Virus record (IMG/VR): IMGVR_UViG_3300045988_159436
Reading direction: 5' to 3' (one strand)
DNA from: a virus
Length of the DNA stretch: 64,000 bases
In this document: positions 2,445 through 60,658 of the stretch, piece after piece
Numbering within the stretch: the stretch's first letter is position 1
Layout: the number at the start of each line of letters is the position of its first letter
Translations under genes and position numbers: made by a program
The notes under the pieces: model-generated
What the model was told of the DNA's origin: nothing
Database searches by the model: none
What the model saw: only the letters and a program-made list of their open reading frames with translations

Positions 2445-3899
2445 ATGCAAGAATTTGAATTTGTTGATAATGGAATTTTTAAAAAAAATGGCAAAGACTA
2501 TCTTAATAAAGGGCAAATAGTAATTAATGATATAACATATTACTTTTACATCAGTTCTGATGTACCTTATTTCGCAGGGCTATATTTACCTAATAAAGAA
2601 AAATTTATAGTTATTGCTGTGACTGATGAAAATAAGGGCAGGGAAGCCACAGAAGAAGAACGTGTAATATTACAATGTAAATGTAGAAGGTGCATAAACT
2701 GTGGAGAAGTAATCACTAAAGAAGACTGGATTTGGGTAGACGGAGATACCTTATGCGCTAATTGTTATGAAAATTTATTGGGTGAAGAAATTGAAATATG
2801 TGATATTTGTGGGTGCGCCCATTTTTCTGATAATGATAGAATGATATACATTCAAGAAGAAGAGCAATTAATTTGTGATGAATGCGCTGAACGTCATTAC
2901 TTTCAATGTAGTAATTGCGGAAAATGGACTAAAGAAATACTACCAATGGCTGATGGAGATTACATATGCAACGAATGCTTCGAAACAGGGGACTATTATA
3001 TATGTGACGATTGCGGAAATGTTATAGCCCCTGATACTGACGGCATAATTATACGTAGTGACAGTGTATACTGTGAAGATTGCGCTTCTGAGCATGCAGA
3101 CCCCAATGAAGAATATATACACGAATATTGCTATTCTCCATGCATAATGTTTAATGAAGGGAATGAATTAAATAGTTGCCCGAAAAAGGGGGAAAGATAT
3201 TTCGGACTAGAAATTGAAACAGAATGTACTGGGGATATTACAGAAGTAATAGAAAATGAAAATTACTACTGGGCCACTGATGATAGCAGTATTCAATGTT
3301 TAAATGGGGGCTGTGCCGCTGAAATAGTAACGCAACCGACAACATTTAAAGCATGGCAGAATTACAGTGATGCATTTTTTGATGCTTTAGAAAATAACTG
3401 CGTTACTAATAATTCTTGCGGATTACATATTCATGTCAATAGAAATAGTGTATCAGATGAAACGATTGAAAAAGCAATATTATTTATTAGTAAACATTAT
3501 GAAAAAATAGCAATATTTGCAGATAGGTTGATGTGCAACATATGCAGTTATGCGGGGAATAATTTAGAACATTATAAAGATTTCTATCCTAATAGCAAAT
3601 CTGTTAAGGAAGAAATTAATATTATAAAAAAGGGGAAAGATAATGTACGGCATAAATATTTAGCTATAAATACCTTGCATAAGAATACATATGAATTCCG
3701 CATATTTAACAGCACTGTAGATAAAGATAGAATACTGGCATATATAGAATTTGTAGATGCATTGCTTGAATACTGTTCAGAGAATAACTTTTTACAAATT
3801 TGTAAGTCGGATTTTCTCGACTTAAACAAATATGCGGAAGGATGGGATAAATATAAAAATTTAACACACAGGTTCAGTGTTCTTAATCAAGAATTATAG
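2445..3899 (+). CDS. multi-Zn-ribbon protein with C-terminal amidoligase-like (Amidoligase_2/glutamine-synthetase-like) domain
   Basis: ~8 CxxC...CxxC pairs in N-half; YFGLEIETE, CGLHIHVN, YEFRIFNS motifs resemble GxExE / GxHxH / ExR of amidoligase family. Confidence 0.5.
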   Translation: MQEFEFVDNGIFKKNGKDYLNKGQIVINDITYYFYISSDVPYFAGLYLPNKEKFIVIAVTDENKGREATEEERVILQCKCRRCINCGEVITKEDWIWVDGDTLCANCYENLLGEEIEICDICGCAHFSDNDRMIYIQEEEQLICDECAERHYFQCSNCGKWTKEILPMADGDYICNECFETGDYYICDDCGNVIAPDTDGIIIRSDSVYCEDCASEHADPNEEYIHEYCYSPCIMFNEGNELNSCPKKGERYFGLEIETECTGDITEVIENENYYWATDDSSIQCLNGGCAAEIVTQPTTFKAWQNYSDAFFDALENNCVTNNSCGLHIHVNRNSVSDETIEKAILFISKHYEKIAIFADRLMCNICSYAGNNLEHYKDFYPNSKSVKEEINIIKKGKDNVRHKYLAINTLHKNTYEFRIFNSTVDKDRILAYIEFVDALLEYCSENNFLQICKSDFLDLNKYAEGWDKYKNLTHRFSVLNQEL

Positions 3900-11054: not shown

Positions 11055-11140
11055 GGAGGATTAGCCTAATGGTAAGGCATCAGTCTTGAAAACTGACGTG
11101 CGATTAAAGTCGTTTGTGGGTTCGAGTCCCATGTCCTCCT
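11055..11140 (+). tRNA. tRNA-Ser(TGA), type II
   Basis: cloverleaf by eye, long variable arm, CCA encoded. Confidence 0.7.
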
Positions 11141-11146
11141 CCACAT

Positions 11147-11222
11147 GAGTCAGTGTATTCTTGGGGTAAGGAAACGGTCTGCAAAACCGTTAAAATTCAC
11201 GGTTCAACTCCGTGCTGACTCT
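11147..11222 (+). tRNA. tRNA-Cys(GCA)-like (atypical D-arm)
   Basis: acceptor GAGTCAG/CTGACTC, anticodon loop ctGCAaa. Confidence 0.5.
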
Positions 11223-11239
11223 CCAATAAAAAATAATGC

Positions 11240-11268
11240 TTGACAAATACACAAAAGTGTGATATAAT
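11240..11268 (+). promoter_or_regulatory. sigma70-type promoter inside tRNA array
   Basis: TTGACA-17-TGtGATATAAT. Confidence 0.65.
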
Positions 11269-11279
11269 ATATATATAGT

Positions 11280-11350
11280 GCGGTAATAGTTTAAGGGTAA
11301 AACTTTAGCCTTCCAAGCTAATGTTACGAGTTCGATTCTCGTTTACCGCT
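11280..11350 (+). tRNA. tRNA-Gly(TCC)
   Basis: cloverleaf by eye. Confidence 0.7.
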
Positions 11351-11355
11351 CCAAT

Positions 11356-11426
11356 GGGCTGTTAGTTTAACGGTAGAACAGTGGTCTCCAAAACCATTAA
11401 TGGGGGTTCGATTCCTTCACGGCTCG
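11356..11426 (+). tRNA. tRNA-Trp(CCA)
   Basis: cloverleaf by eye. Confidence 0.7.
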
Positions 11427-11430
11427 CCAT

Positions 11431-11502
11431 ACTTAGGTAGTTCAATGGTAGAATCCCGCTCTGTTAAAGCGGTAGTTGTTGGTTCGAGTCCAACCCTAAG
11501 TG
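11431..11502 (+). tRNA. tRNA-Asn(GTT)
   Basis: cloverleaf by eye. Confidence 0.75.
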
Positions 11503-11507
11503 CCAAT

Positions 11508-11578
11508 GGAGGGTTAAGTCAACGGTAGACTAGGCAACTTATAATTGCTTAATATTGGTTCGATTCCAGTACCCTCAA
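11508..11578 (+). tRNA. tRNA-Ile(TAT) (AUA-reading) - acceptor 1:72 mismatch
   Basis: anticodon loop ctTATaa; good D and T arms. Confidence 0.5.
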
Positions 11579-11583
11579 CCAAT

Positions 11584-11657
11584 CTTTGTGTGGCGCAGTT
11601 TGGTAGCGCATTCGCTTTGGGAGCGAAGGGTCGCAGGTTCAAATCCTGCCACAAAGA
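11584..11657 (+). tRNA. tRNA-Pro(TGG)
   Basis: cloverleaf by eye. Confidence 0.75.
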
Positions 11658-11801
11658 CCAAAGACTATAAAAGGATAGGGCACTCCCTAGCGCAAAGTGG
11701 AGGATGCGGATTTCCGCTGTCGTAATGGCATCGTCTAAAAAAATCCTTTTAATTTGCCAGAGTAAAGCTAGCAAATGCTCTGGCATTAGATTGCGGGTGG
11801 G

Positions 11802-11875
11802 AGGCAAGGTGTTCTCGCAAGCCTCATAAGCTTGTTTAAGGTGGGTTCGATTCCCATACCCGCTCCCAAATAAAA
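11802..11875 (+). tRNA. tRNA-Met/Ile2(CAT), 5' end uncertain
   Basis: anticodon arm caagc-ctCATaa-gcttg, T arm gtggg-ttcgatt-cccat. Confidence 0.45.
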
Positions 11876-11937
11876 GTTCTAGCTTGGGCATAAGCTCTGG
11901 GGCTACCGTAGATAGGGACATTTCCCTATCACTTAAT

Positions 11938-12010
11938 GTGAATATAGCTTAGTTGGTAAAGCACTTGACTTTTAATCAAGATAGCGGAGGTTCAATTCCT
12001 CCTATTCACA
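11938..12010 (+). tRNA. tRNA-Lys(TTT)
   Basis: cloverleaf by eye. Confidence 0.75.
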
Positions 12011-12022
12011 CCAATTAATAAT

Positions 12023-12058
12023 GCAGGGGTTGCATAGTTGGCGATTGCACCAGACTGT
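12023..12058 (+). tRNA. 5' half of a tRNA split by HNH-gene insertion (acceptor GCAGGGG, D arm)
   Basis: pairs perfectly with 3' half at 12664-12688; anticodon arm cannot be completed by eye. Confidence 0.4.
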
Positions 12059-12073
12059 AAAGGAGCATAAAAA

Positions 12074-12667
12074 ATGCTTTGCGAAAACTGTAATAAAGAG
12101 CATAATGGAAGTTATGGTTCTGGAAGATTTTGTTCTAAAGAATGTGCTAAGTCTTTTTCTACCAAAAATAAAAGAAAACTAATAAACGAAAAGGTTAGTA
12201 ACAGTTTAAAAGGACGCATTGTTTCGGATTTAACTAGGAGAAAAATATCAGATGCTGGAAAAGGGAGAAGACATACAGAAGAGACTAAGAAGAAAATACA
12301 AAAAAGCAAATTAGAATTTTATAAAGAAGAAGAAAACATTCTTAAAATATCTATAGCGCATCTTGTCCAAAAAGGCAAGAATATAAATTCTATCTTAGAT
12401 GTTAGTCCTAGAACAGTGACTAAAATTTTAAAAAGGTTAAAAATTGGTTGCTCGTTGTGTGGTTGGGATAAAGCCACTTGCGACATTCACCATATTAAAG
12501 GCAGAAAAATAGTTAATCCTAATGCTCATAGTAATTTAACTTACATTTGTCCAAACTGTCATAGATTAGTACATGCGGGTTTAGTGGATTCAAAAGAGTT
12601 AGTGACACTTGAACAACATATAGGAGATAGGTGGAAAGAATACTATTTTAGAAAAGAGACACCGTAG
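12074..12667 (+). CDS. HNH homing endonuclease with N-terminal Zn finger and NUMOD3-like repeats
   Basis: CDIHHIKGR...N...CPNCHRLVH. Confidence 0.75.
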   Translation: MLCENCNKEHNGSYGSGRFCSKECAKSFSTKNKRKLINEKVSNSLKGRIVSDLTRRKISDAGKGRRHTEETKKKIQKSKLEFYKEEENILKISIAHLVQKGKNINSILDVSPRTVTKILKRLKIGCSLCGWDKATCDIHHIKGRKIVNPNAHSNLTYICPNCHRLVHAGLVDSKELVTLEQHIGDRWKEYYFRKETP

Positions 12668-12688
12668 GTTCGATTCCTACTCCCTGCA
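12664..12688 (+). tRNA. 3' half of split tRNA (T arm + acceptor TCCCTGC)
   Basis: gtagg-ttcgatt-cctac then tccctgc-a-cca. Confidence 0.4.
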
Positions 12689-12694
12689 CCATAT

Positions 12695-12728
12695 TTCCCA
12701 TTAGCTCAATGGATAGAGCACAGGTCTT
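12695..12728 (+). tRNA. tRNA-Arg(TCT) exon 1 (ends after U34 of anticodon loop)
   Basis: TTCCCAT-TA-GCTC...GAGC-A-CAGGT-CTT|. Confidence 0.55.
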
Positions 12729-13339
12729 TAAAGATAGGAGCGTTCATGTGGAACATTAAGAAAATTGTAAGTAAAGGTGATTATTTATATGCTTTAGTTC
12801 CTGAACATCCAAAAGCAACTAAGAATGGTTACGTTCTTTTACATAGGATTGTTATGGAAAATCATCTTGGTCGGTTACTTAATGCGAATGAAGTTGTACA
12901 TCATAAAAATTTGAATAAGAAAGATAACAACATCAAAAATTTAGAAATTTTGTCTATAAGAGAGCATGCTAAAAAACATGGATTAAAACTAAAGAAACAC
13001 ATGGTTTTGTTAAAATGTCCTTGTTGCAAGAAAGTGTTCTCGCTAGCTCGAAATAAATCTTTTTTAGTAAAGAAGACAAAATATAATTGTAACTGTTGTA
13101 GTTGTTCTTGTAGAGGTAAATTAACAAAAATGATACAGCTTCAAGGAGTAACACTTGAACTGGAAGATGCTATATCGGAGAATCTCTTAACGGAATATTT
13201 GCTAAACAAAGCCGAAGACAACTCCGAGGAAACCTTCTTACAAGGGGTTCTGTAGAGACTATACGCATCTTACCTGAAATGGTAAAGAAATAGTCCAGAC
13301 TACAACACATATGTGGCTATAGAAATATAGAGTAGTAAG
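12729..13339 (+). mobile_element. tRNA intron (group I-like) carrying HNH endonuclease
   Basis: follows U, ends in G; 3' exon restores anticodon loop cttCTaa, stem, T arm and acceptor ATGGGAA. Confidence 0.5.
12746..13255 (+). CDS. HNH endonuclease (HNH_3) with C-terminal Cys cluster
   Basis: VVHHKNLNKKDNNIKNLEIL. Confidence 0.75.
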   Translation: MWNIKKIVSKGDYLYALVPEHPKATKNGYVLLHRIVMENHLGRLLNANEVVHHKNLNKKDNNIKNLEILSIREHAKKHGLKLKKHMVLLKCPCCKKVFSLARNKSFLVKKTKYNCNCCSCSCRGKLTKMIQLQGVTLELEDAISENLLTEYLLNKAEDNSEETFLQGVL

Positions 13340-13377
13340 CTAAACCTTGTGTGCAGGTTCGATTCCTGCATGGGAAA
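13340..13377 (+). tRNA. tRNA-Arg(TCT) exon 2
   Basis: ctaa-acctt-gtgt-gcagg-ttcgatt-cctgc-atgggaa-a-cca. Confidence 0.55.
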
Positions 13378-13750
13378 CCAAATAGATTATAATAGCTTGG
13401 GGTTAAAATAAAATAGTGAGTCTAGATAACCATTAGTGACTTAGGGCGCATTAAGTTGGGTCAGCAACAGAAAAATCTGACACATTGGTCTGCTAGGGAC
13501 TTTAAAAAACTCACGCCTTTTGTTCATAGAGACAGAAGTTAGCCATTGATAGTATATATTTAACTGTATAAGTATATGCCGAGGCTTTATCAGTTCGCAC
13601 TGAGCTAATTTACAGCTAGGTATAGAGCCGAAGAAGAAAGTGCCAACCAAGCCATTTTATATACTAGGACTAAAGGGTAGAACGGTCAGCTACCGCCACA
13701 GAGAAGCTCTGGTAGGAGATGCTGGGTTGACAGCCAGCTTAGTTCTTATT

Positions 13751-13823
13751 TGCCAGATAGTGTAATGGTAACACAGCAGACCTTGACTCTGTTAAGTGTA
13801 GGTTCGAGTCCTACTCTGGCATC
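13751..13823 (+). tRNA. tRNA-Gln(TTG) (C33 in loop)
   Basis: cloverleaf by eye. Confidence 0.6.
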
Positions 13824-13828
13824 CATAT

Positions 13829-13900
13829 TGAAGCATAATACAAGGGTTAGTATGCTGTGCTGATAACGCAGAAATGATGGTTCAACTCCATCTGCTTCAA
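13829..13900 (+). tRNA. tRNA-Ile(GAT)
   Basis: cloverleaf by eye. Confidence 0.7.
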
Positions 13901-13904
13901 CCAT

Positions 13905-13978
13905 GTCCTATTACCCCAATCGGCAGAGGGAACGGACTTAAAATCCGTACAGTCTCAGTTCGAATCTGAGATAGGACA
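13905..13978 (+). tRNA. tRNA-Leu(TAA) with short variable arm (atypical type I)
   Basis: anticodon loop ctTAAaa. Confidence 0.5.
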
Positions 13979-13985
13979 CCAAAAT

Positions 13986-14058
13986 GGCATATTAGTCTAA
14001 TGGCTAGGACACAACACTTTCAATGTTGGGATGGCGAGTTCAATTCTCCCATATGTCA
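13986..14058 (+). tRNA. tRNA-Glu(TTC)
   Basis: cloverleaf by eye. Confidence 0.7.
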
Positions 14059-14064
14059 CCATAC

Positions 14065-14134
14065 ATGCCTTTAGCTTAGTTGGTTAAAGCGGCTGGTTGA
14101 AGCCCAGCAGAGTCCGTTCGATTCGGAGAGGCAT
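14065..14134 (+). tRNA. tRNA-Phe(GAA)
   Basis: cloverleaf by eye. Confidence 0.65.
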
Positions 14135-14139
14135 ACCAT

Positions 14140-14212
14140 GCTAGTGTAGCTCAATAGGTAGAGCAACGGCTTTGTAAGCCGTGGGTTGCGGGTTCAATTC
14201 CTGCCACTAGCT
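14140..14212 (+). tRNA. tRNA-Thr(TGT)
   Basis: cloverleaf by eye. Confidence 0.75.
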
Positions 14213-14354
14213 CCATTTTAAAAATTGAATAGTTAGGGAAAGCCCTAGCTATTTTTGTTTATATGCAATAAACTTTATAAAAAACACTGTTACAACTGTA
14301 AAAAACAAAATAATTTATTTGCAAAGGAAGTGTTTGTTATAAGGAGTGTTCAAA

Positions 14355-15302
14355 GTGATTACTAAGGTGAAAAAGCGGGATGGAAGAATTGTAGATTATG
14401 ATTCTTCTAAAATTGTTAATGCGATTCTAAAAGCTTTTAAAAGTTTAGGAATGTTAGAAGGAAAAGAAGTAAGGTTAGCAAACAAGATAGAATCTAAAAT
14501 TAAAGAGACAGCAGAAAGTATTCCAGAAGTTGAATTTATTCAAGATATGATTGAAAAAGAGTTAATGGCATCAAATTTTAAAAATGTAGCGAAAGAGTTT
14601 ATTTTATATAGGGAAAAAAGAAATAGAGAGCGGGAAAGAGATTCTGCGTTAAGAAAAGAAATATTAAGTAAAATAGAATGTACAAATGTGATGAATCAAA
14701 ATGCAAATGTAGATGAAGAAAGTTTTGGTGGCAGAAAATTTGAAAGTGCCGCAGTAATACATAAAGATATTGCGTTAAATGATTTAATGTCAAGTGATGT
14801 AGCTAAAGCACATAAAGAGGCAAGAATTTATATTCACGATTTAGATAGTTATAGTGTTGGGATGAGCAACTGCTTGTTTTCGGATTTAGTACCGCTATTG
14901 ACAAATGGTTTTATTACAAGAAATGGTGATGTAAGAGGGGCAGGAAGCTTTAGCACTGCTTGCCAATTAGTAGCTGTAATATTTCAGGCTCAAAGCCAAT
15001 GTCAGTTTGGTGGAATAGCTTCTGCACATATAGATAGAGATTTAGCACCATTTGTAAAAAAGAGTTTTGTAAAACATTTCAAAAATGGTATGAAATATGT
15101 AGAGCAAAAAGAAATAGATAAAGAATTGGAATATTTTTTAGGCTTTTTAAAAAACAATGAAGAGAATATACATATAGATAATGATGTCTTTAAGAAATAT
15201 GAAAAGGCATATGAATACGCAAATGCTATGTTAGAGCTTGAAGGAAAACAGAGTACAGAAGCAATGTATCATAATTTAAATACCTTAGAGAGTCGCCCAG
15301 GT
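14355..15302 (+). CDS. nrdD: anaerobic ribonucleoside-triphosphate reductase NrdD exon 1 (ATP-cone + N-terminal catalytic region); 3' junction approximate (15293 or 15302)
   Basis: ATP cone VKKRDGRIVDYD..; class III RNR-like segments; frame ends at a stop inside the intron. Confidence 0.7.
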
Positions 15303-16451
15303 AGGAGAACTGCCTGTTAGAGATGGAAACACTTTAATGTAATCGGGCAAAATCGGTAAATTCTAAAAAATTGGAGAATATATGAAGAAATTAGATGTAG
15401 AAATAGAAAATGAAATTATTAAATATTATATTGAATATTTTTATAGCTGTCGTAAGATAAGTAAAGATTTAGGAATAAGTGGAGCTACTGTTTTAAATGT
15501 TTTAAAAAGAAATGGGATTCCTACGAGAACAAAGGGAGGAATTTATGAATTGCCTACTTCTTTATTGGTGCAAAAATATAGAGAAGGGGTTTCTATAATT
15601 CAGCTTTCTAAAGAATATCAAGTATGTGTTCAAACTATTGCAAATTATTTGGCAAAAGCGGAAATTAATTTAAATAACATATATTACAATAAGAAATTGG
15701 ACAGAAACTATTTTGATAAAATAGACACATACGATAAGGCTTATTATTTAGGCTTTTTGATTTCTGATGGTAGCGTAGGCACTTCTACAAATAAAATTGA
15801 TTTAACGTTAAAAAAATCAGATAGTTATATTTTAGACGTTTTAAGTTCTAAAATTAATAATACTAATCCTATATATTTTTCTAAAAGAGGAGAGGCTTCT
15901 TTAACTTTTAAGTCTAAAGAAATAAAAAATGCTTTAGCAAAATATGGAGTAATTCCTAATAAAACGTTTAAAACTTATTTACCTGAACTTGAAATGTCTT
16001 TAATGCCACATTTAATTCGAGGTTTAATAGATGGAGATGGTTGGGTATCATTTAAATCTCACGCTATTGGTTTTTGTGGCTCTGTTGAGCTAGTAGGACA
16101 AGTTAGAGATTTTTTAGTAAAAATTCTAGGCGTTTTTCCTGTAAAAATTATTGAACATTCAAGTATTTGTCAAGTTAATTGGGCATCAAAAAATGATATT
16201 ATAAAAATAGGAAATTATATTTATAAAGATAAACAAGATTGTTTTCTACATAGGAAATTCAATAATTTTATGAAAATACCGAGATAACTTAATATGTAAT
16301 AGTATTAAGTATTGTAGAGCGTAGCGATTGAACCTCTAAGAGAATATAATATCGCCAAGAGTGTCCGATACCCTAACAAGTAAAGTTGAGGGTAAAAATG
16401 TACGCCGAACTTATGGGAAACCATAAGAACTATGAGATAAAAAGCTTGTAG
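15303..16451 (+). mobile_element. group I-like intron 1 in nrdD with LAGLIDADG HEG
   Basis: starts after U, ends in G; shares gggcaaaatcggt and a ~75-nt 3' core with intron 3. Confidence 0.6.
15382..16287 (+). CDS. LAGLIDADG homing endonuclease (two-motif)
   Basis: YLGFLISDGSV and LIRGLIDGDGWV. Confidence 0.85.
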   Translation: MKKLDVEIENEIIKYYIEYFYSCRKISKDLGISGATVLNVLKRNGIPTRTKGGIYELPTSLLVQKYREGVSIIQLSKEYQVCVQTIANYLAKAEINLNNIYYNKKLDRNYFDKIDTYDKAYYLGFLISDGSVGTSTNKIDLTLKKSDSYILDVLSSKINNTNPIYFSKRGEASLTFKSKEIKNALAKYGVIPNKTFKTYLPELEMSLMPHLIRGLIDGDGWVSFKSHAIGFCGSVELVGQVRDFLVKILGVFPVKIIEHSSICQVNWASKNDIIKIGNYIYKDKQDCFLHRKFNNFMKIPR

Positions 16452-16766
16452 GATAACAAATTGAGTCAATTACCTTTTACTTCAATTAACTATGGTTTAG
16501 ATATAACGCCAGAAGGAAGATTAGTAACAAAATGGTTATTAAATGCTTCTATTGAGGGAATAGGCAAAAATCATTTAACTCCGATTTTTCCAATAAGTAT
16601 TTTTCAATACAAAAAAGGGGTTAATGATAGAGAGGGAACTCCTAATTATGATTTAAAAAAATTAGCCATAAAGAGTTTAAGTAAAAGGATATATCCAAAC
16701 ATTGTAAATTGTGATTGGAGTAAAAATCCTGCTTCAAACATTGATGAAGAAATGGCTACAATGGGT
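16452..16766 (+). CDS. nrdD: NrdD exon 2
   Basis: ...SQLPFTSINYGLD...EEMATMG| ends at G of conserved MG-CR junction. Confidence 0.65.
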
Positions 16767-17012
16767 AAGTGGAACTTAGCCCATTTAAAACCCTTTGAAC
16801 GCCGTCAGGCGGTGTGACCAGTAGGTTGCTAACGGTTAGGACTCTTTGAGTTGAGACCGTGCTAAGGTTCATATATTGTGATGAACAAAGTGTATCGACT
16901 AGCCGTGATGAGTGTAGCGGCGTAGGGACGGAGATAGACACCGTATCCGAAGCGGAGGGCTGTTTTTAAACAGATAATATAGTCAGTACCACTAGCGATA
17001 GTGGAGAATACG
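16767..17012 (+). mobile_element. small ORF-less group I-like intron 2 in nrdD (246 nt, GC-richer, structured)
   Basis: splits conserved ..MG|CRTLIG..; follows U, ends G; stop codons in reading frame. Confidence 0.55.
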
Positions 17013-17897
17013 TGTAGAACCCTGATAGGTAAAGATAGACATGGAATGGGGTATAAGAAAGACGGTAGAGGTAATGCTTGCCCTGTAACTATTAATTTAC
17101 CTAGAATTGGAATAAAACATGGCATTTGCTTAGGCAAACCATTAGATTTAGAAGGATTTTGGAAAGAGCTTGATGAAGTATTAGATTTAACAGAAAAGAG
17201 CTTAATAGAGAGATTCTTTTATATGTGTAAGCAGAGTGTAAAAGCCGCTCCGTTTATGTATAACAATAATATTGTTGCTGATGCAAAATTGGCAAGAGAA
17301 AAAGGCATTTATGAAACATTAAAGCATTTTACATTAGGATTTGGATATATTGGTATTGCTGAAATGTGTCAAGCACTGTTTGGTGCAGACCATTATGAGT
17401 CTAAAGAGAGTTTGGATTTTGCTTTGAAAGTTGTTGAGCATATTTATCAAAGAACGGTTGAAGCAAGTGAAAAGCATAATTTGAATTTCTCTTGTTATGC
17501 TACTCCTGCTGAAACATTGGCATATAAATATGCTTTGGCTTTAAAGAAAGAGTTTGGAGTAATACCTAATGTTACAGATAGGGAATATATAACTAATTCA
17601 CATCATGTTCCAGTTTGGCAACAAGCATCTATTTTTGAAAAATTAGATATTGAAGCTAAATTCTGTAAATACCCCACGGCAGGCTGTATTACTTATATTG
17701 AGTTTGAAGCAGATGCAATGAAAAATGAACAAGCGGTAGAGGATATTATGGATTACGCAATGTCTATAGATGTTCCCTATTTAGCTTATAATTTTCCTAT
17801 TGATGTTTGCCATGATTGCGGATTACAGAGTGATATCCCAAGTGTTTGCCCGAATTGCGGAAGCAATAATATTTTACGTTTAAGAAGGGTTACAGGT
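17013..17897 (+). CDS. nrdD: NrdD exon 3 (..CRTLIGKDRHGMG..CPVTINLPRIG.. C-terminal Zn ribbon CHDCG..CPNCG, ..RVTG)
   Basis: class III RNR motifs; glycyl radical motif RVTG|Y split by intron 3. Confidence 0.7.
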
Positions 17898-18199
17898 TAT
17901 TGAATAGCCGTATTTACAAGAAATTGTAAATATAATTATTGGGCAAAATCGGTGAACCCTAAAATTTTTACTTGACAATACTTAAGAAATGTGATAAGTT
18001 TAAAAAAATTAAGGGAATACCGAGGTAAGTTATTAGATAGCGAAAGGCTGATAGCTACTGTAGAGCGTAGCAGGTGAATAAATATAATCCTGCCAAGAGT
18101 GTCCGATACCCTAACAAGTAAAGTTGAGGGTAAAAATGTACGCCGAACTTATGGGAAACCGTAAGAAGTTAGGATAAAAAGCCTAGCGATAACATAATT
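17898..18199 (+). mobile_element. ORF-less group I-like intron 3 in nrdD (302 nt), homologous to intron 1 core
   Basis: 16357-16428 nearly identical to 18094-18166; boundaries follow U / end G. Confidence 0.55.
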
Positions 18200-45533: not shown

Positions 45534-47348
45534 TTGGAACATATAACTAAACAAGAAGATGTAACAGTAACTAGAATAGTAAGCTCTTTAAATACTTTAG
45601 ATGATGAAAATATGGTGGTAGTGTCCACTACAGAGCCAGAGAAGAAAAAAGATGGATTAATATGGGTTAATCCAAATCAAGAAGAAGCGGAAAAATTGGT
45701 TTATGTAGGACATACAGTTGGTGACATTTATCCCATTAGTTATACAGAGTTAGATTCAGGTCAGTTAATATTAAATGGTCAGTTAATAAGCAGAGAAATA
45801 TATGGTGTGTTATGGGATTGGTTGCAAAAACACCCTAGTTTAATAAAAACAGAAGTAGAGTGGAATGCATATTTAGCATCAACAAATAATGTATGTTGCC
45901 CATATTTTAGTATGGGAACTACTGAAACTAATTTTAGATTGCCTAAATATAGTGGAGTATTTATTAGAGCTGATTCTGATATAACTAAAATTAATCAATT
46001 TAGTGAAGATACACAAAGAAATATTCTTGGACAATTTACAACTTTTCGTACAAGTTGGGATGATGGTACTGGAGAATTACTTTTTGGAGTGAGTGGAGCT
46101 TTTGCAAAAGTAGAAACTGGTAATAATATGGACAGTATTCATCAAGATGGCTCAGACAGACAACAGCAAACTATAAATTTCGACGCTTCACGTTCAGTAG
46201 GCGCAGAGCATACTGGCGAAGAAGTAAAACCTAAATCAATAAATCAAATATGGGTTATTCAAGCTGTAGGAACTATTACTAATCAAACAAGTATTGATGT
46301 AAGTGCTATTCAAGAAGAAGTGCAACAATTAATGGATTTTGGGAATTATCAAGTAGCTTGCATTAAGGATAAATCCAATTATTTTTCAAGAGATAGTTTA
46401 TTTACTTCAAACAAAACGTCTATTGTTATTCCTAAGAATATGCGGATAAATATAAATGGAGAGGCTTATATAAGCACACGTAATGTCACTCTTAATACTT
46501 CAACATTAGGTGAAAATCTAGCGGGTAAAGATGTTTATATTTATGCCTTAGCAGGTTCTGGAACAGAGCCAGATTTTGTATTATCTTTAAATAGTACAGT
46601 TCCTACAGGATATACAGCAGAAAATAGCCGTAAAATAGGTGGTTTTCATTGTTTATGTAAAGATGTTGGGATTATAGAAGGGCATGCTTTATCTGGATAT
46701 GTTGCAGGGGATATCTTACCAGCAACAAGATGGGATTTAGAACACCGCCCAAAAGGAAATCCAGAAGGATTTGCTTATGAAGAATTAACGGATTGTTGGA
46801 TTGCGATTTATCTGCCAAGTTGGGACGGAACTAAATTAGTCAGTGTTTATAATGGAGTTATTGCTGATGGAAGCTCTGCTAAAAAATGGCATGGAGAAGC
46901 TTTTTATGAGCAATTTGTAAAACAAGGAATGCGTTTAGTTTGGCGGCACGAATTTCAAATGGGAGCAAAAGGTTCTAATGAACAAACAAATATTCAAGGT
47001 TCATCTGACCCTAATACTACAGGTGGGCATGTAGATACGGCTGGAAGAAGAATGATTAGTAATATAGGATTAGAAGATTGTTGTGGTGTATTATGGCAAT
47101 TTTCAATGGATTTAGGCTTTGCTGGCGGGTCTGGTTGGACAAATTCTACTTATAACTCTAATGTAGACGATAGAAGTTATGGACGAACATATGGAACGCT
47201 TTATCGCTTGCTGTTGGGTTCTAGCTGGAATGTTGGCTCGTATTGCGGTTCTCGTTCGGCTAATTGCAATGATTCTTCGGCTTATGTGTCTGTCCACAAC
47301 TCTTCTCGTAGTGCGTCTGAGCCGAGAATTGAAAATTTGAGAAACTAA
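45534..47348 (+). CDS. DGR target protein: receptor-binding protein with C-terminal C-type-lectin-like variable region
   Basis: VR occupies last ~37 codons. Confidence 0.8.
   Translation: MEHITKQEDVTVTRIVSSLNTLDDENMVVVSTTEPEKKKDGLIWVNPNQEEAEKLVYVGHTVGDIYPISYTELDSGQLILNGQLISREIYGVLWDWLQKHPSLIKTEVEWNAYLASTNNVCCPYFSMGTTETNFRLPKYSGVFIRADSDITKINQFSEDTQRNILGQFTTFRTSWDDGTGELLFGVSGAFAKVETGNNMDSIHQDGSDRQQQTINFDASRSVGAEHTGEEVKPKSINQIWVIQAVGTITNQTSIDVSAIQEEVQQLMDFGNYQVACIKDKSNYFSRDSLFTSNKTSIVIPKNMRININGEAYISTRNVTLNTSTLGENLAGKDVYIYALAGSGTEPDFVLSLNSTVPTGYTAENSRKIGGFHCLCKDVGIIEGHALSGYVAGDILPATRWDLEHRPKGNPEGFAYEELTDCWIAIYLPSWDGTKLVSVYNGVIADGSSAKKWHGEAFYEQFVKQGMRLVWRHEFQMGAKGSNEQTNIQGSSDPNTTGGHVDTAGRRMISNIGLEDCCGVLWQFSMDLGFAGGSGWTNSTYNSNVDDRSYGRTYGTLYRLLLGSSWNVGSYCGSRSANCNDSSAYVSVHNSSRSASEPRIENLRN
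47208..47320 (+). repeat. DGR variable repeat (VR)
   Basis: 113 nt; 15 mismatches to TR, all at TR adenines. Confidence 0.85.
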
Positions 47349-47495
47349 GAAACCGAGAAAAAGTTTGGATAGTTGGACAGAGAGGTCTAGAAACCGAGAG
47401 ACCGAGACTAAAATTTTTAGTTGTGAGAAAATAAAGAAGATTATATAATAATATTATATAAGGGCATATATGATACTTAGATTGGCAAGATTTTT

Positions 47496-47608
47496 TTGCT
47501 GTTGAGTTCTAACTGGAATAATGGCACGAATTGCAGTTCTCGTTCAGCTAATTGCAATGATTCATCAGCTAATGTGAATGTCAACAACTCTTCTCGTAGT
47601 ACGTCTGA
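47496..47608 (+). repeat. DGR template repeat (TR)
   Basis: non-coding copy, Asn-codon (AAY) rich in VR frame. Confidence 0.85.
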
Positions 47609-47759
47609 TACGTGGGTGATTTTAAAGCAGGTGCGGCTTACCCTCGGCTGATTATATATGCCTCACTGAAAAGTGAAATACAAAACAGGGAGAAATAGGG
47701 GCTAGTAAAGTAATTGAACGTCCTTATTTCTAAATTTTATTAAATTAAAAGGATAATTA

Positions 47760-48776
47760 ATGAAAAGAAAAGGAAATTTATGGACTAAAATAATAGACAA
47801 AAGCAATTTATATTTGGCTTTTGAGAAAGCTAAAAGACATAAAAGTTGGCAAAGAAAGGTTAAAATTATAGAAGCAAATTTAGATTATTATATTGAAAAG
47901 TTACAAAATGATTTGATAACAGGTCAATATAAAACTGCTGAATATAAGTTAAAAACAATTTATGAGCCAAAGAAAAGAGATATTTATATTTTGCCATTTT
48001 ATCCAGATAGGATAGTTCATCACGCTATTATGAATGTTTTAGAGCCTATATGGGATAATAGATTTATTTATAATAGTTATGCTTGTCGAAAAAATAAAGG
48101 TCAACATAAAGGCAGTATAAAATGTATGGAATACACTAGAAAGTTTAAATATTGTTTGAAATGTGATATAAGTAAATTTTATCCTTCTATTAATCACAGG
48201 CTTCTAAAGAAAGTGATACGTAAAAAAATAAAATGTAAAAAGACTTTAAATTTATTAGATGAGATAATTGATAGTGTTGATACGCCTGTAAATGTTCCTA
48301 TAGGAAATTATTTAAGTCAGTGGTTTGGAAACTTATATTTAAATGAGTTAGATGTTTTTCTAAAGCAAGAGAATTGTGTAAAAAATTATTTAAGATATTG
48401 CGATGATTTTTTATTATTTTCTGATGATAAAACATATTTAAATAAAATGGCTAAAATAATAAATGAATATGTAGTTAATATTTTAGAATTAAAACTTAGC
48501 AAATGTGTTTTGTTTCCAACAGCACAAGGAGTTGATTTTTTAGGATATAGACATTTCCATGCTGGTTATGTTTTGGTAAGAAAATCAACAGCTAAAAGAA
48601 TGAAGCGTAGGATTAAAAGATTAAAATATGAATTATTAAAGAATAAAATAAGTCAAGATAAGGCTTTATCTGTTGTAGCAAGTTTATCTGGGGGGTTAAG
48701 ATGGGCTAATAGTTACAATTTAAAAATGTCTTTAGAGCTAGAATTATTAAAAAAGGAATTAGGAGGAAACTCTTAG
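47760..48776 (+). CDS. DGR reverse transcriptase
   Basis: PIGNYLSQWFGNLYLNELD and YCDDFLLF motifs. Confidence 0.85.
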   Translation: MKRKGNLWTKIIDKSNLYLAFEKAKRHKSWQRKVKIIEANLDYYIEKLQNDLITGQYKTAEYKLKTIYEPKKRDIYILPFYPDRIVHHAIMNVLEPIWDNRFIYNSYACRKNKGQHKGSIKCMEYTRKFKYCLKCDISKFYPSINHRLLKKVIRKKIKCKKTLNLLDEIIDSVDTPVNVPIGNYLSQWFGNLYLNELDVFLKQENCVKNYLRYCDDFLLFSDDKTYLNKMAKIINEYVVNILELKLSKCVLFPTAQGVDFLGYRHFHAGYVLVRKSTAKRMKRRIKRLKYELLKNKISQDKALSVVASLSGGLRWANSYNLKMSLELELLKKELGGNS

Positions 48777-49358: not shown

Positions 49359-49387
49359 TTGACAATTTTTACATAATATGGTATAAT
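49359..49387 (+). promoter_or_regulatory. sigma70-type promoter
   Basis: TTGACA-17-TGgTATAAT. Confidence 0.65.
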
Positions 49388-49451: not shown

Positions 49452-49480
49452 TTGACAGTCTTTTTATTTTATGTTATAAT
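49452..49480 (+). promoter_or_regulatory. sigma70-type promoter
   Basis: TTGACA-17-TGtTATAAT. Confidence 0.65.
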
Positions 49481-49489
49481 AGTATTGAG

Positions 49490-49699
49490 GTGGAGGAAAT
49501 ATTGAAAGATTTTGAGAAACGTTTAAGTAAACAAAATTTTATGTTAATTAAAGTAAATGAATATTATTTTATTAGAAAAAGCAGAGCGTTTAAAAATAGT
49601 TATATGGTATTAGATTCAAAAGGGTATTTGATAGATTGTTTACAAGAAAAAATAGTTCGGCAAGTTTTTTTAGGCATAGATTTGGGGGAATGGGAATGA
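49490..49699 (+). CDS. WE-tail family small protein A (..GEWE*), start uncertain (GTG 49490/TTG 49502)
   Basis: C-terminal module FLGIDLGEWE. Confidence 0.45.
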   Translation: MEEILKDFEKRLSKQNFMLIKVNEYYFIRKSRAFKNSYMVLDSKGYLIDCLQEKIVRQVFLGIDLGEWE

Positions 49700-49911
49700 T
49701 TAAAAAACCTAATAATAATTGTAAATTATGCAAGTGTCTTCATAACTATAGCTATTTTAAAAAAGGTGAGTATTATTGGGCTGAATTAGGAGAACGTTTT
49801 TTTGCTGGTGCAGTTGTAGTATATTTTGGGAAGGACAGACATAATATGTGCTCTGTGGTTTTTTCCGACTTTTTCATTAAATTTCGATGGGAGGATTCAC
49901 AATGGGAATGA
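49690..49911 (+). CDS. WE-tail family small protein B (MGM.. ..QWE*)
   Basis: ATGGGAAT start overlaps previous EWE-stop. Confidence 0.5.
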   Translation: MGMIKKPNNNCKLCKCLHNYSYFKKGEYYWAELGERFFAGAVVVYFGKDRHNMCSVVFSDFFIKFRWEDSQWE

Positions 49912-50108
49912 GGATAACAGTAACTCCAAAAAGACAACTTATACATTATAATTTAAATGAGCAATATATAGCAGTGCCTGTATTTAGTGTGTATGGAAGT
50001 ATGGAATATAATATTTATAATAAAAAAGGCAATCTTTTAAATTCTTGGGTATCCCAAGAGTCATTATTTAATTTTTTTAAAAAGGTAGTAGATAAAGAAT
50101 GGGAATAA
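49902..50108 (+). CDS. WE-tail family small protein C (MGM.. ..KEWE*)
   Basis: same junction architecture. Confidence 0.5.
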   Translation: MGMRITVTPKRQLIHYNLNEQYIAVPVFSVYGSMEYNIYNKKGNLLNSWVSQESLFNFFKKVVDKEWE

Positions 50109-50308
50109 AGTTAGTAAAGGCAAAAGATAATTCGGCTCATTTTAGTCGTGGAGAGTTGTATAAAGTAACCCCATATAAAACTATGTATGGAGAAACAAAA
50201 TATACTATTTATACTGAGAATGGGTGGTTTATAAAAAGTTTTGTAACAGAAGGGGAATTACTTTATTTTTTTGATGTAGTTAATAATTATAATTTTGGAT
50301 GGGAATAA
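50099..50308 (+). CDS. WE-tail family small protein D (MGI.. ..FGWE*)
   Basis: same junction architecture. Confidence 0.5.
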   Translation: MGIKLVKAKDNSAHFSRGELYKVTPYKTMYGETKYTIYTENGWFIKSFVTEGELLYFFDVVNNYNFGWE

Positions 50309-50323
50309 AAGGAGGAAATAAAA

Positions 50324-50701
50324 ATGGAACCAATTATTAGTCCGTGGGTATTTTATTTTATTGATAAGTTAGATGAGGTGTCTGGATTGCCTTTATCAAT
50401 TTTTGCTTTTGGAATGTTAACAAATTTTATATTAGTTATGGTTACTGAAACATCAGAAGAGTTTAAAAGGTGGTTTTTTCCAAAAGCGTGGTTAGCACTT
50501 TTTTTGCTATCAGTTATGTTTGTTTTTTTAGTTCCTACAAAAGAAACGGCATACAAAATGATTATAGCAAATTATGTAACGCCTAACAGTATTTCTATAG
50601 TAAAAGAAGCCACAGAAGATAACATTGCTTCTTTAATAGATAAAATAGCAGTTGCTTCACAGGCATTATCAGGAAGGGAGAAAGAATCAAAATCCAAATG
50701 A
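50324..50701 (+). CDS. membrane protein (2 TM)
   Basis: hydrophobic segments. Confidence 0.45.
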   Translation: MEPIISPWVFYFIDKLDEVSGLPLSIFAFGMLTNFILVMVTETSEEFKRWFFPKAWLALFLLSVMFVFLVPTKETAYKMIIANYVTPNSISIVKEATEDNIASLIDKIAVASQALSGREKESKSK

Positions 50702-50952: not shown

Positions 50953-51486
50953 ATGATTATACGCAAAGATGATTATTTTAAAGTTCGTACTTTTTTTAAG
51001 TATGATGGTAATTCCTTTTTTAAAGGAGATTTATTACGAATAGTAAATAGTTGGTCAGATGAGGAAGCGGACTTTTGTAGTGAGTATTTTGAGTTATTTT
51101 TAAAGAAAAACAATTTAATGTTTAATCAAAAGTTTCAGGTTTTGGATTATGATGGAAAATATGCTGTTGGTAATGGGGCAAAATTTTGGATAGCAGATAA
51201 TAAACTTCATTGTGATAATCCAGAGATGAATACTCGGCTTATTATGTTAGAACTATTTGCTGGTAATTGTAGTGTAAAACAATTTCCTTATTATCCCACA
51301 AATGGTGATGTATATTTTTATGTCTATATGGACGGAAGCAATAATCAGGGAGTTGTATCTAAGGGAGTATTTTATGGTAATTTAGTAGACCAGCTTTTGC
51401 GAAGTTTAGGAAAATGTTATAGAACTAGAAACGAAGCAGAAGAGCATTTAAAAGAGGATGTTAATTTTTTATTAAAAGGAAGATGA
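50953..51486 (+). CDS. hypothetical protein
   Basis: ORF track. Confidence 0.45.
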   Translation: MIIRKDDYFKVRTFFKYDGNSFFKGDLLRIVNSWSDEEADFCSEYFELFLKKNNLMFNQKFQVLDYDGKYAVGNGAKFWIADNKLHCDNPEMNTRLIMLELFAGNCSVKQFPYYPTNGDVYFYVYMDGSNNQGVVSKGVFYGNLVDQLLRSLGKCYRTRNEAEEHLKEDVNFLLKGR

Positions 51487-59728: not shown

Positions 59729-60043
59729 ATGGTTAGTACAATTACAGTAGATAATTTTAAGTGTAAATGTTGTGGGGCAACGCCTAAAGTGAGTAAACGG
59801 CTGTTGAAAATATTGAATGATATACAGACAAACGTTGGCTCTGAATTAACAATATTATCACCTACTTGTAAAGACCAAGAATTTAAAAAGTTATTAAAAG
59901 CTTGTGTCATTTTAGTTCCTAAACTTTATACTGTTGATGATTTAGCGGACTTAGCGATACTGTATAACGCAGATGGTATAAGAAGGTTATATAAATATAA
60001 AGCAGTATATGTAGATGTTTTAGGAAATAAAATGGATTATTAA
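59729..60043 (+). CDS. hypothetical protein
   Basis: ORF track. Confidence 0.4.
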   Translation: MVSTITVDNFKCKCCGATPKVSKRLLKILNDIQTNVGSELTILSPTCKDQEFKKLLKACVILVPKLYTVDDLADLAILYNADGIRRLYKYKAVYVDVLGNKMDY

Positions 60044-60044
60044 T

Positions 60045-60070
60045 CCCTTACTAAGTAAGGGATTTTTTTT
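60045..60070 (+). terminator. rho-independent terminator
   Basis: cccttactaagtaaggg + T8. Confidence 0.7.
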
Positions 60071-60071
60071 A

Positions 60072-60100
60072 TTGACAAAATTAAAAAAGTATGGTATAAT
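60072..60100 (+). promoter_or_regulatory. sigma70-type promoter (family copy)
   Basis: TTGACA-17-TGgTATAAT. Confidence 0.7.
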
Positions 60101-60112
60101 AGATTTAACGAG

Positions 60113-60376
60113 GTGATAGTAATGGAAATGTTGGCATTGAAAAGTGGCGTAGATTATCGAACGTTTAGGTTTATATTTGGAACTGACAAACTTTCTTATA
60201 AAGCTTCTCATAATCTTTGGAAAAAGCTTTCTACTGGTGTATCAAAAAAGCATTTAAACTTAGAATCAGTTGAAGGTGTACTAATTTATAATTTTGAATA
60301 CTCTAATGGAAAGTATTGTTATTTTCCTGAGTTTTGGTTTGAAGAAGTTAGGTATTCTGATATTGAATGGGAGTAA
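60113..60376 (+). CDS. WE-tail family small protein (..SDIEWE*)
   Basis: C-terminal module. Confidence 0.5.
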   Translation: MIVMEMLALKSGVDYRTFRFIFGTDKLSYKASHNLWKKLSTGVSKKHLNLESVEGVLIYNFEYSNGKYCYFPEFWFEEVRYSDIEWE

Positions 60377-60629: not shown

Positions 60630-60658
60630 TTGACAAAAGGAAAAAAGTGTGGTATAAT
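60630..60658 (+). promoter_or_regulatory. sigma70-type promoter (family copy)
   Basis: TTGACA-17-TGgTATAAT. Confidence 0.7.

Follow-up and report, generated by a model that had tools for sequence, protein, structure and literature searches.

The 64,000-nucleotide stretch of viral DNA analyzed here (IMG/VR record IMGVR_UViG_3300045988_159436; hereafter the window) has a low G+C content (~32%) and carries almost all of its genes on the plus strand. At positions 49502-50308 it contains an array of four small genes, here called P1 to P4, whose predicted products all end in Trp-Glu immediately before the stop codon (hereafter the WE end). Three further genes of the window, P5, P6, and P7, specify the same end (Table 1). 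An earlier note on this DNA, made from the sequence alone, had described the array by the terminal residues of its products (..GEWE, ..QWE, ..KEWE, and ..FGWE) and had pointed to the three additional open reading frames (ORFs). All seven ORFs were recovered with these ends, and the tandem set of small accessory genes is real. In related phages the WE end recurs on groups of small proteins that share no detectable homology with each other, and the pattern of variation points to selection on the protein terminus.

The likely start of P1 is a TTG codon with the ribosome-binding site GGAGG; an upstream ATG (49448) falls within a promoter, and the same 65-residue protein is called by gene callers on related contigs. 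The other three genes of the array start at the ATG inside the sequence GA-ATG-G, which belongs to the Glu and Trp codons of the preceding gene. Their start codons begin 7 nucleotides (nt) ahead of the upstream stop codon, and the overlap is 10 nt; the distance of 8 nt given in the earlier note was thus approximately right. P2 and P4 are preceded by a weak ribosome-binding site or by none, and that of P3 is supplied by the P2 codons TGGGAGGA (49888-49895). The leftover mini-ORF that opens within the end of P4 extends over the ribosome-binding site and start codon of the gene that follows (50324). In the P5-P6 unit, the GGGAG at the end of P5 doubles as the ribosome-binding site of P6, which starts 3 nt past the P5 stop codon, and the next promoter (60630-60658) begins 7 nt after the P6 stop codon.

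The number of WE ends in the window far exceeds expectation. The motif AATGGGAATRA is present in five copies against 0.2 expected, and none of 100 shuffled sequences reached five. All six copies of the shorter motif TGGGAATRA are in-frame ORF ends on the plus strand, and the seventh WE end is written TGGGAGTAA. Among the 113 plus-strand stop-to-stop ORFs of at least 50 residues, WE is the commonest terminal dipeptide (seven cases); in a non-overlapping set of plus-strand genes it ends 7 of 84. Since this dipeptide occurs 16 times among 18,791 in the window proteome, about 0.1 WE ends would be expected, and our own Poisson estimate for seven is P ~1e-11. The composition of the residues preceding the end is also unusual. 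When 15 representatives of WE families were compared with 77 control genes, aromatic residues made up 23% of positions -18 to -4 in the former and 10% in the latter (p = 1.7e-5), and acidic residues 43% and 13%, respectively, of positions -6 to -3 (p = 4e-6). The aromatic-rich C-terminal module described in the earlier note therefore holds statistically; it is a compositional result and proves no homology.

Related contigs were gathered via the P3 orthologue, the neighbouring helicase, the junction pattern, a divergent allele of P4, and an amidoligase gene. The resulting lineage set comprises 40 loci on contigs of up to 99.5 kb, from uncultured phages of ~96-99 kb. It contains 109 distinct WE-ending proteins of 49-162 residues that fall into 14 BLAST families, and a fifteenth family was found in a relative with a 79% identical helicase. 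One genome of 95.8 kb has at least 12 WE genes in the 42 kb examined. The genome arm beyond the window, as seen in three sibling contigs (L066-L068), holds a second array of WE genes in tandem and several that stand alone, in total eight or nine in 15-19 kb.

Comparison of these proteins shows where the constraint lies. The stop codon of the 109 WE genes is TAA in 68 cases, TGA in 35, and TAG in 6; the terminal Glu is encoded by GAA (68) or GAG (41); and the residue at position -3 is E in 86 proteins, G in 10, Q in 9, A in 2, and S and V in one each. Variation is confined to synonymous positions and the neighbouring residue, with W-E-stop fixed. Moreover, the WE end persists where the P4 body has been exchanged for an allele that is ~40% identical (P0058, ending ..ESWE), and it is retained in diverged alleles of P1, P2, and P1b, an array member of the relatives that is absent from the window. 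Since every stop codon and either Glu codon can be used, and the end is kept while the bodies change, selection acts on the protein end and not on the DNA.

ORFs that match WE families and lack the end are mostly frameshifted or shortened copies. The remaining matches are the read-through of a doubtful minus-strand ORF, the mosaic gene 50953-51486 of the window, and two full-length variants in which a change of GAA to AAA has converted WE to WK (L044, 3406-3699, and L068, 1152-1463). These two, the only full-length variants of this kind, are candidate natural alleles with loss of the WE end, or else sequencing errors. The first ~90 residues of the mosaic gene match a pair of 90-residue WE genes (..PEWE/..REWE) that relatives carry at the same position; its C-terminal half differs from theirs. 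The sole minus-strand WE ORF (L064, 8568-8774, 68 residues, ..VPYGWE) may owe its end to coincidence, because the homologue in L063 and L065 reads on to 111 residues.

The identity of the junctions in the array needs no separate explanation, since GAATGGGAATRA is E-W-E-stop written in preferred AT-rich codons, GAA TGG GAA TAA/TGA. The E-W codons GAATGG unavoidably contain ATG, so that a start codon is available at each such junction, and a downstream ATG 7 nt before the stop codon is found at three junctions in the window and at four in the relatives. Because P2 and P4 have poor ribosome-binding sites, coupling by termination and reinitiation is plausible in the main array. At GAG-type ends, GGGAG stands 5-9 nt ahead of the next start (P5 to P6, the 90-residue pair, and the second array), and a start follows 1-12 nt past the stop codon at 11 of 24 such ends versus 3 of 42 GAA-type ends. 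The GAA-type ends include 18 junctions with an overlapped start and 18 without a start within 30 nt, 8 of the latter directly before a promoter. Altogether the WE end is kept at 24 contexts without a downstream start within 30 nt, and it is equally kept at P4, P6, and P7 and in at least 18 other contexts where no gene overlaps or adjoins. Coupling therefore cannot be the cause of the WE end, and the junctions do not account for it.

Cassette shuffling at the junctions, suggested in the earlier note, has left a clear trace. The relatives have a five-gene array, P1-P1b-P2-P3-P4, and the array of the window is the same minus P1b. The left side of its P1/P2 joint corresponds to the P1/P1b junction of the relatives and the right side to their P1b/P2 junction, the crossover falling inside the junction repeat GAATGGGAAT[G/A]ATTAA. 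The P1/P2 joint is the recombinant scar of the loss of the P1b cassette. Other loci display further turnover: P1b and P2 are decayed in L006, P4-deletion variants (P0021 and P0022) have the N-terminus of P4 fused to the leftover MGIKGGNKNGTNY mini-ORF, and in other relatives P4 is replaced by a divergent allele.

The earlier note had treated the seven proteins of the window as one family, a view that comparison of their sequences does not sustain. With the last three residues removed, only P3 and P4 are clearly homologous (z = 12 in Smith-Waterman comparison against shuffled sequences), and two pairs are marginal (P2-P4, z = 3.7; P5-P6, z = 3.8). All-against-all comparison of seven family alignments by hhalign left every pair at or below 10% probability, whether the terminal residues were included or removed; between groups, nothing is shared beyond the terminus at this level, an outcome that the earlier note had listed as counting against its own view. 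P1b is an obvious paralogue of P2, P5 and P6 are probably paralogues, and P1 forms a separate family without a detected paralogue among the seven. As judged by these searches, paralogy is limited to P3/P4, P1b/P2, and probably P5/P6, and the seven do not group into a single detectable family.

Similarly, structural and database comparisons yielded no common fold or known relative for the proteins of the window. The AlphaFold model of P4 has three beta-strands followed by a C-terminal helix, with a predicted local distance difference test score (pLDDT) of 71 and values below 50 for the last four residues; searched with Foldseek against the PDB and BFVD, it returned nothing significant (best E 0.17). 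The all-helical model of P7 (pLDDT 43) is unreliable and too poor for a fold search. The seven proteins have no near-threshold match in Pfam, PHROGs, or NCBIfam, and none among PDB sequences. Outside the seven, one WE family with the signature IGD..YWTxEMF (L019 and L066-L068) matches phrog_7488 (E = 3.3e-9 for the L019 member), and tblastn detected homologues in Clostridium phage phiCP13O, Bacillus phage vB_BcoS-136, and Enterococcus phage VD13. These homologues end in ..EMFEKIEEKGE or run much further, and none ends in WE. In at least this case, therefore, the WE end was added to a widespread scaffold within the lineage. The possibility that the WE proteins are DNA mimics was rejected, as they are not acidic overall (isoelectric points 6.1-9.1).

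Co-occurrence in other phages was examined, and the WE set was found only in this lineage. No close DNA relative is present among 50,697 deposited phages. A profile of P3/P4 searched against 1.84 billion representative proteins and a P3+P4 search of 5.8 billion clusters both returned this lineage only; four long matches to the profile are repetitive beta-sandwich surface proteins (SpaA, fn3) and were judged to be spurious hits caused by beta-hairpins or composition. Matches to the tandem junction pattern in other phage lineages of IMG/VR were likewise discarded, since none is an ORF end. More than 70 unrelated, amidoligase-bearing phage loci have WE ends at background level (8 among ~9,000 ORFs), and Bacillus phage BCD7, the closest cultured relative (terminase 49% identical), has none. 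Scanning 185,579 species genomes for the helicase revealed no host or prophage relative; the nearest relatives of the phage lineage infect Bacillota. A literature search on a C-terminal Trp-Glu motif in phages found nothing relevant. In the databases covered, the WE set is confined to this lineage.

Table 1. Coordinates of the WE genes and of other features of the window.
Feature	Position	Strand	Description
Perfect consensus promoter 1	49359-49387	+	TTGACA-17-TATAAT with TG extension, 12/12 positions; upstream of the array
Perfect consensus promoter 2	49452-49480	+	Directly upstream of P1
P1	49502-49699	+	65 residues; TTG start behind GGAGG; ends ..DLGEWE
P1/P2 junction GAATGGGAATGA	49688-49699	+	Encodes E-W-E-stop of P1; holds the ATG of P2 (49690)
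P2	49690-49911	+	73 residues; starts MGMIKKPNNNC..; ends ..RWEDSQWE
P3	49902-50108	+	68 residues; ends ..VVDKEWE
P4	50099-50308	+	69 residues; ends ..NYNFGWE
Leftover 13-codon ORF (MGIKGGNKNGTNY)	50299-50340	+	Opened by the ATG in the G-W codons of P4
Mosaic gene	50953-51486	+	Relative of a further WE family, without WE
P5-P6 unit promoter	60072-60100	+	Perfect consensus; after intrinsic terminator 60042-60064
P5	60122-60376 (ORF 60113-60376)	+	84 residues; ends ..YSDIEWE; codons TGG GAG TAA
P6	60380-60622	+	80 residues; ends ..LPIFEWE
P7	354-842	+	162 residues; ends ..NSKSDEWE; no downstream gene overlaps or adjoins
Mtd-like tail-fibre target gene	45534-47348		PF21916; variable repeat 47208-47320
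Template repeat	47496-47608		Diversity-generating retroelement
Reverse transcriptase	47760-48776		Diversity-generating retroelement

The WE genes lie among other features of the window. Fifteen perfect promoters of the form TTGACA-N14-TGN-TATAAT are present against 0.09 expected; their sites include 6752, 8533, 8798, 20806, 27728, 32001, 49359, 52524, 60072, and 62508. They precede accessory and structural modules alike, which suggests that the phage uses the host primary sigma factor throughout. An assignment of the WE genes to the early class on the basis of their promoters was considered and rejected, since identical perfect promoters also precede structural modules. Upstream of P7, at ~120-205, there are ~3.5 tandem copies of an AT-rich unit of ~25 nt (TTATTTGTATTTTTATATAATAC..). 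The ~1.6 kb downstream of P7 (843-2444) contains no long plus-strand ORF and shows hairpins resembling terminators and several boxes resembling promoters; Rfam gives no match there. This region is followed by a gene (2445-3899) for a protein of 484 residues that combines several zinc ribbons at the N-terminus with an Amidoligase_2 domain (PF12224, E = 8e-11). Elsewhere in the window, a complete diversity-generating retroelement occupies 45534-48776, and all 15 differences between its template and variable repeats are at template adenines. Fifteen tRNA genes are arranged in two blocks (11055-14215), the second of which is immediately preceded by a skipping-rope RNA at 13666-13746 (RF02924, 49.7 bits). 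An NrdD-like ORF (14346-15320, 324 residues) is followed by an ORF for an HNH-type endonuclease (15382-16287) and by a 300-residue ORF (17001-17903); the region 14346-17903 may represent an anaerobic ribonucleotide reductase gene split by insertion of a homing endonuclease.

To explain the conservation of the WE end, we propose that the aromatic helix, the acidic linker, and Trp-Glu-COOH together constitute a docking tag at the C-terminus that a single shared partner recognizes, an interpretation that in our judgment has an even chance of being correct. The terminus, ..(acidic)-Trp-Glu-COOH, would be a lineage-specific recognition tag placed on a short flexible linker past an aromatic-rich helix and borne by many unrelated small accessory proteins. 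A single putative reader, either phage- or host-encoded, would dock, sort, or process all WE proteins alike, and the activity of each protein would reside in its variable N-terminal body. In its most concrete version, the tag would target the proteins to the virion for co-injection into the host, by analogy with the internal proteins of phage T4. The ATG within the E-W codons has been taken up by the main array as the start of the next gene, and the repeated junction offers microhomology that permits the in-frame loss or gain of cassettes. The anatomy of the C-terminus is consistent with such a tag: it combines aromatic and acidic enrichment with a linker of variable length (2 to 8 residues between helix and WE) and low-confidence terminal residues in both structural models. 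The proposal further draws on the number of WE ends, the fixed W-E-stop amid changing codons and bodies, the lack of detectable homology between carriers, the addition of WE to the phrog_7488 scaffold, the restriction to one lineage, the retention of WE where no gene overlaps or adjoins, and the T4 precedent.

Several points weigh against this proposal. Both models were built from shallow alignments (pLDDT 71 and 43), so that the flexible tail is weakly supported, and the Trp could instead pack onto the preceding helix. Very fast-evolving tandem paralogues can lose all detectable similarity, and "unrelated" therefore means here that no relationship was detected; the excess of aromatic and acidic residues before WE could be what is left of a module inherited from a common ancestor. 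Since perfect host-type promoters precede accessory and structural modules, no early or late role can be inferred for the WE genes. Finally, the T4 signal is N-terminal and cleaved, and nothing in the WE proteins points to cleavage.

Among the alternative explanations, descent from a single ancestral gene by tandem duplication and extreme divergence, with WE as a structural cap or oligomerization element and no external reader, appears unlikely to us. The arrays and pairs are tandem, paralogy is evident within groups (P3/P4, P1b/P2, the 90-residue pair, and probably P5/P6), the enrichment in aromatic and acidic residues ahead of WE is shared, and the best local hhalign alignments of some groups fall on equivalent C-terminal segments, albeit without significance. 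This account is opposed by the profile-profile comparison, which links no groups, by the difference in predicted secondary structure between the beta-rich P4 and the helical P7 (the P7 model being of low confidence), by the variable spacing of 2 to 8 residues between helix and WE, and by the family matching phrog_7488, which has acquired WE and whose outside members are devoid of it. Chance, or an artefact of AT-rich composition, has practically no probability left. Although GAA, TAA, and TGG are the codons to be expected at 31-33% G+C, this explanation is refuted by seven observed ends against ~0.1 expected, by the shuffled sequences, which never reach the motif count, by the conservation of WE in orthologues over 40 loci, and by the lack of it in BCD7 and other AT-rich phage loci.

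A quite improbable explanation is that the conserved element is an RNA or DNA signal, TGGGARTRA, functioning as a ribosome-binding or restart site, a recombination site, or a promoter upstream element, so that WE is a by-product. It could draw on the use of the ATG in GAATGG as the next start at all main-array junctions and on the second array, where at several junctions the ATG in GAATGG (GTTGGG at one of them) is in frame with the downstream ORF. It is also in line with the preference of GAG-type ends for a start 1-12 nt further on (11/24 versus 3/42 for GAA), with the precise deletion of one cassette mediated by a junction, and with the position of several WE ends 7-9 nt ahead of a -35 box. 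A nucleic acid signal would not, however, explain why each of the seven sites in the window, like each of the 109 variants, is an in-frame ORF end, why only synonymous positions vary (Glu wobble and stop identity, with all three stop codons in use), or why WE is retained at the 24 contexts that have no start within 30 nt downstream. Many residue pairs could encode a ribosome-binding site, so that Trp-Glu is not forced, and the invariant core TGGGA is too short for a recombination site. We assign a similarly small probability to the idea that WE-COOH is a protective acidic end without a reader, shielding the proteins from proteases that bind non-polar C-termini (ClpXP-type or tail-specific). 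The terminal residue is acidic throughout and the four preceding residues are enriched in Asp and Glu; moreover, ClpXP does not readily degrade proteins whose ssrA tag ends in ..DD, and the preferred substrates of tail-specific proteases have non-polar ends. Yet protection alone leaves unexplained the invariant Trp at -2 and the fact that Asp never replaces Glu in 109 variants. It does not explain either why this lineage alone should need it (BCD7 has no WE end), and the majority of the phage's other small proteins have different ends.

The amidoligase gene 1.6 kb downstream of P7 suggests yet another function, and in the siblings L066-L068 an additional amidoligase, 31% identical, is located ~10 kb upstream, among WE genes. 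WE-COOH could then be a conjugation handle, the Amidoligase_2 enzyme ligating the terminal Glu of at least 15 small proteins to amines of the host or the phage. Such a reading predicts enrichment of WE ends near amidoligases, which was not found in the more than 70 other amidoligase-bearing phage loci, and for this reason we keep the link to the amidoligase only as a very improbable reading. Its model is Pup, the C-terminal Glu of which is joined to lysines by the glutamine-synthetase-like ligase PafA. In common with Pup, the WE proteins are small and have an obligatory C-terminal Glu, and Amidoligase_2, like PafA, is a glutamine-synthetase-like ligase of carboxyl and amino groups. Pup differs in that it ends in GGQ or GGE and is an intrinsically disordered protein of ~60 residues, whereas the WE proteins have an invariant Trp before the Glu, and P4 is predicted to be folded. 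If true, this reading would mean that the phage encodes a system akin to pupylation in which the modifiers are many and diverse.

Should the WE end be a docking tag as proposed above, it would represent a simple, transferable address system for sorting, delivering, or processing small, probably host-directed proteins. It would provide a handle for finding the shared partner and a sequence-independent flag for accessory or effector genes in genomes that otherwise consist of "hypothetical" genes, and it might serve as a minimal tag by which cargo is loaded into a phage or delivered via one. In addition, the WE genes illustrate plainly how an invariant protein end can shape the genome that encodes it, in that the forced GAATGGGAAT creates starts, ribosome-binding sites, and recombination joints, and thereby expandable arrays.

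The internal proteins of T4 are a varied set with nothing in common but a capsid-targeting sequence (PMC3012670). In IPI, IPII, IPIII, Alt, and the hyperplastic internal protein loci of T-even phages, as in the WE genes, a short terminal peptide is attached to unrelated accessory proteins of fast turnover, and both kinds of loci are polymorphic between close relatives. The capsid-targeting sequence is N-terminal, comprises ~10 residues, and is cut by the prohead protease at an L/I-x-E site, whereas the WE end is C-terminal and consists of two invariant residues and the free carboxylate, ending at the stop codon. The two have no sequence similarity, and the WE proteins, known from their genes alone, have no common N-terminal motif apart from the MG made by the overlap. 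By this analogy, the WE end would be a variant of capsid targeting of the T4 type rather than a member of it.

The arrangement of the genes in the array resembles that of other overlapping genes in phage operons (overlaps of the ATGA type and longer ones), in which a gene likewise begins within the final codons of its upstream neighbour. It differs from the usual overlaps in that the same 10-nt overlap is repeated four times, since the upstream C-terminus is fixed; coupling is putative here. Short C-terminal docking motifs are known from other systems: the tip of SSB (..DDDIPF-COOH), the acidic tails of T7 gp2.5 and gp4, which end in Phe, and EEVD-COOH, which is read by clamps of tetratricopeptide repeats. 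The likeness consists in an acidic stretch and an aromatic residue at the very end of the chain, in a free carboxylate that belongs to the epitope, and in one pocket that reads several proteins. The tails of SSB and the T7 proteins end in the aromatic residue itself, whereas the WE tails end in Glu with Trp at -2. Moreover, the known docking motifs are situated on one hub protein, and the WE end is carried by many proteins of one phage.

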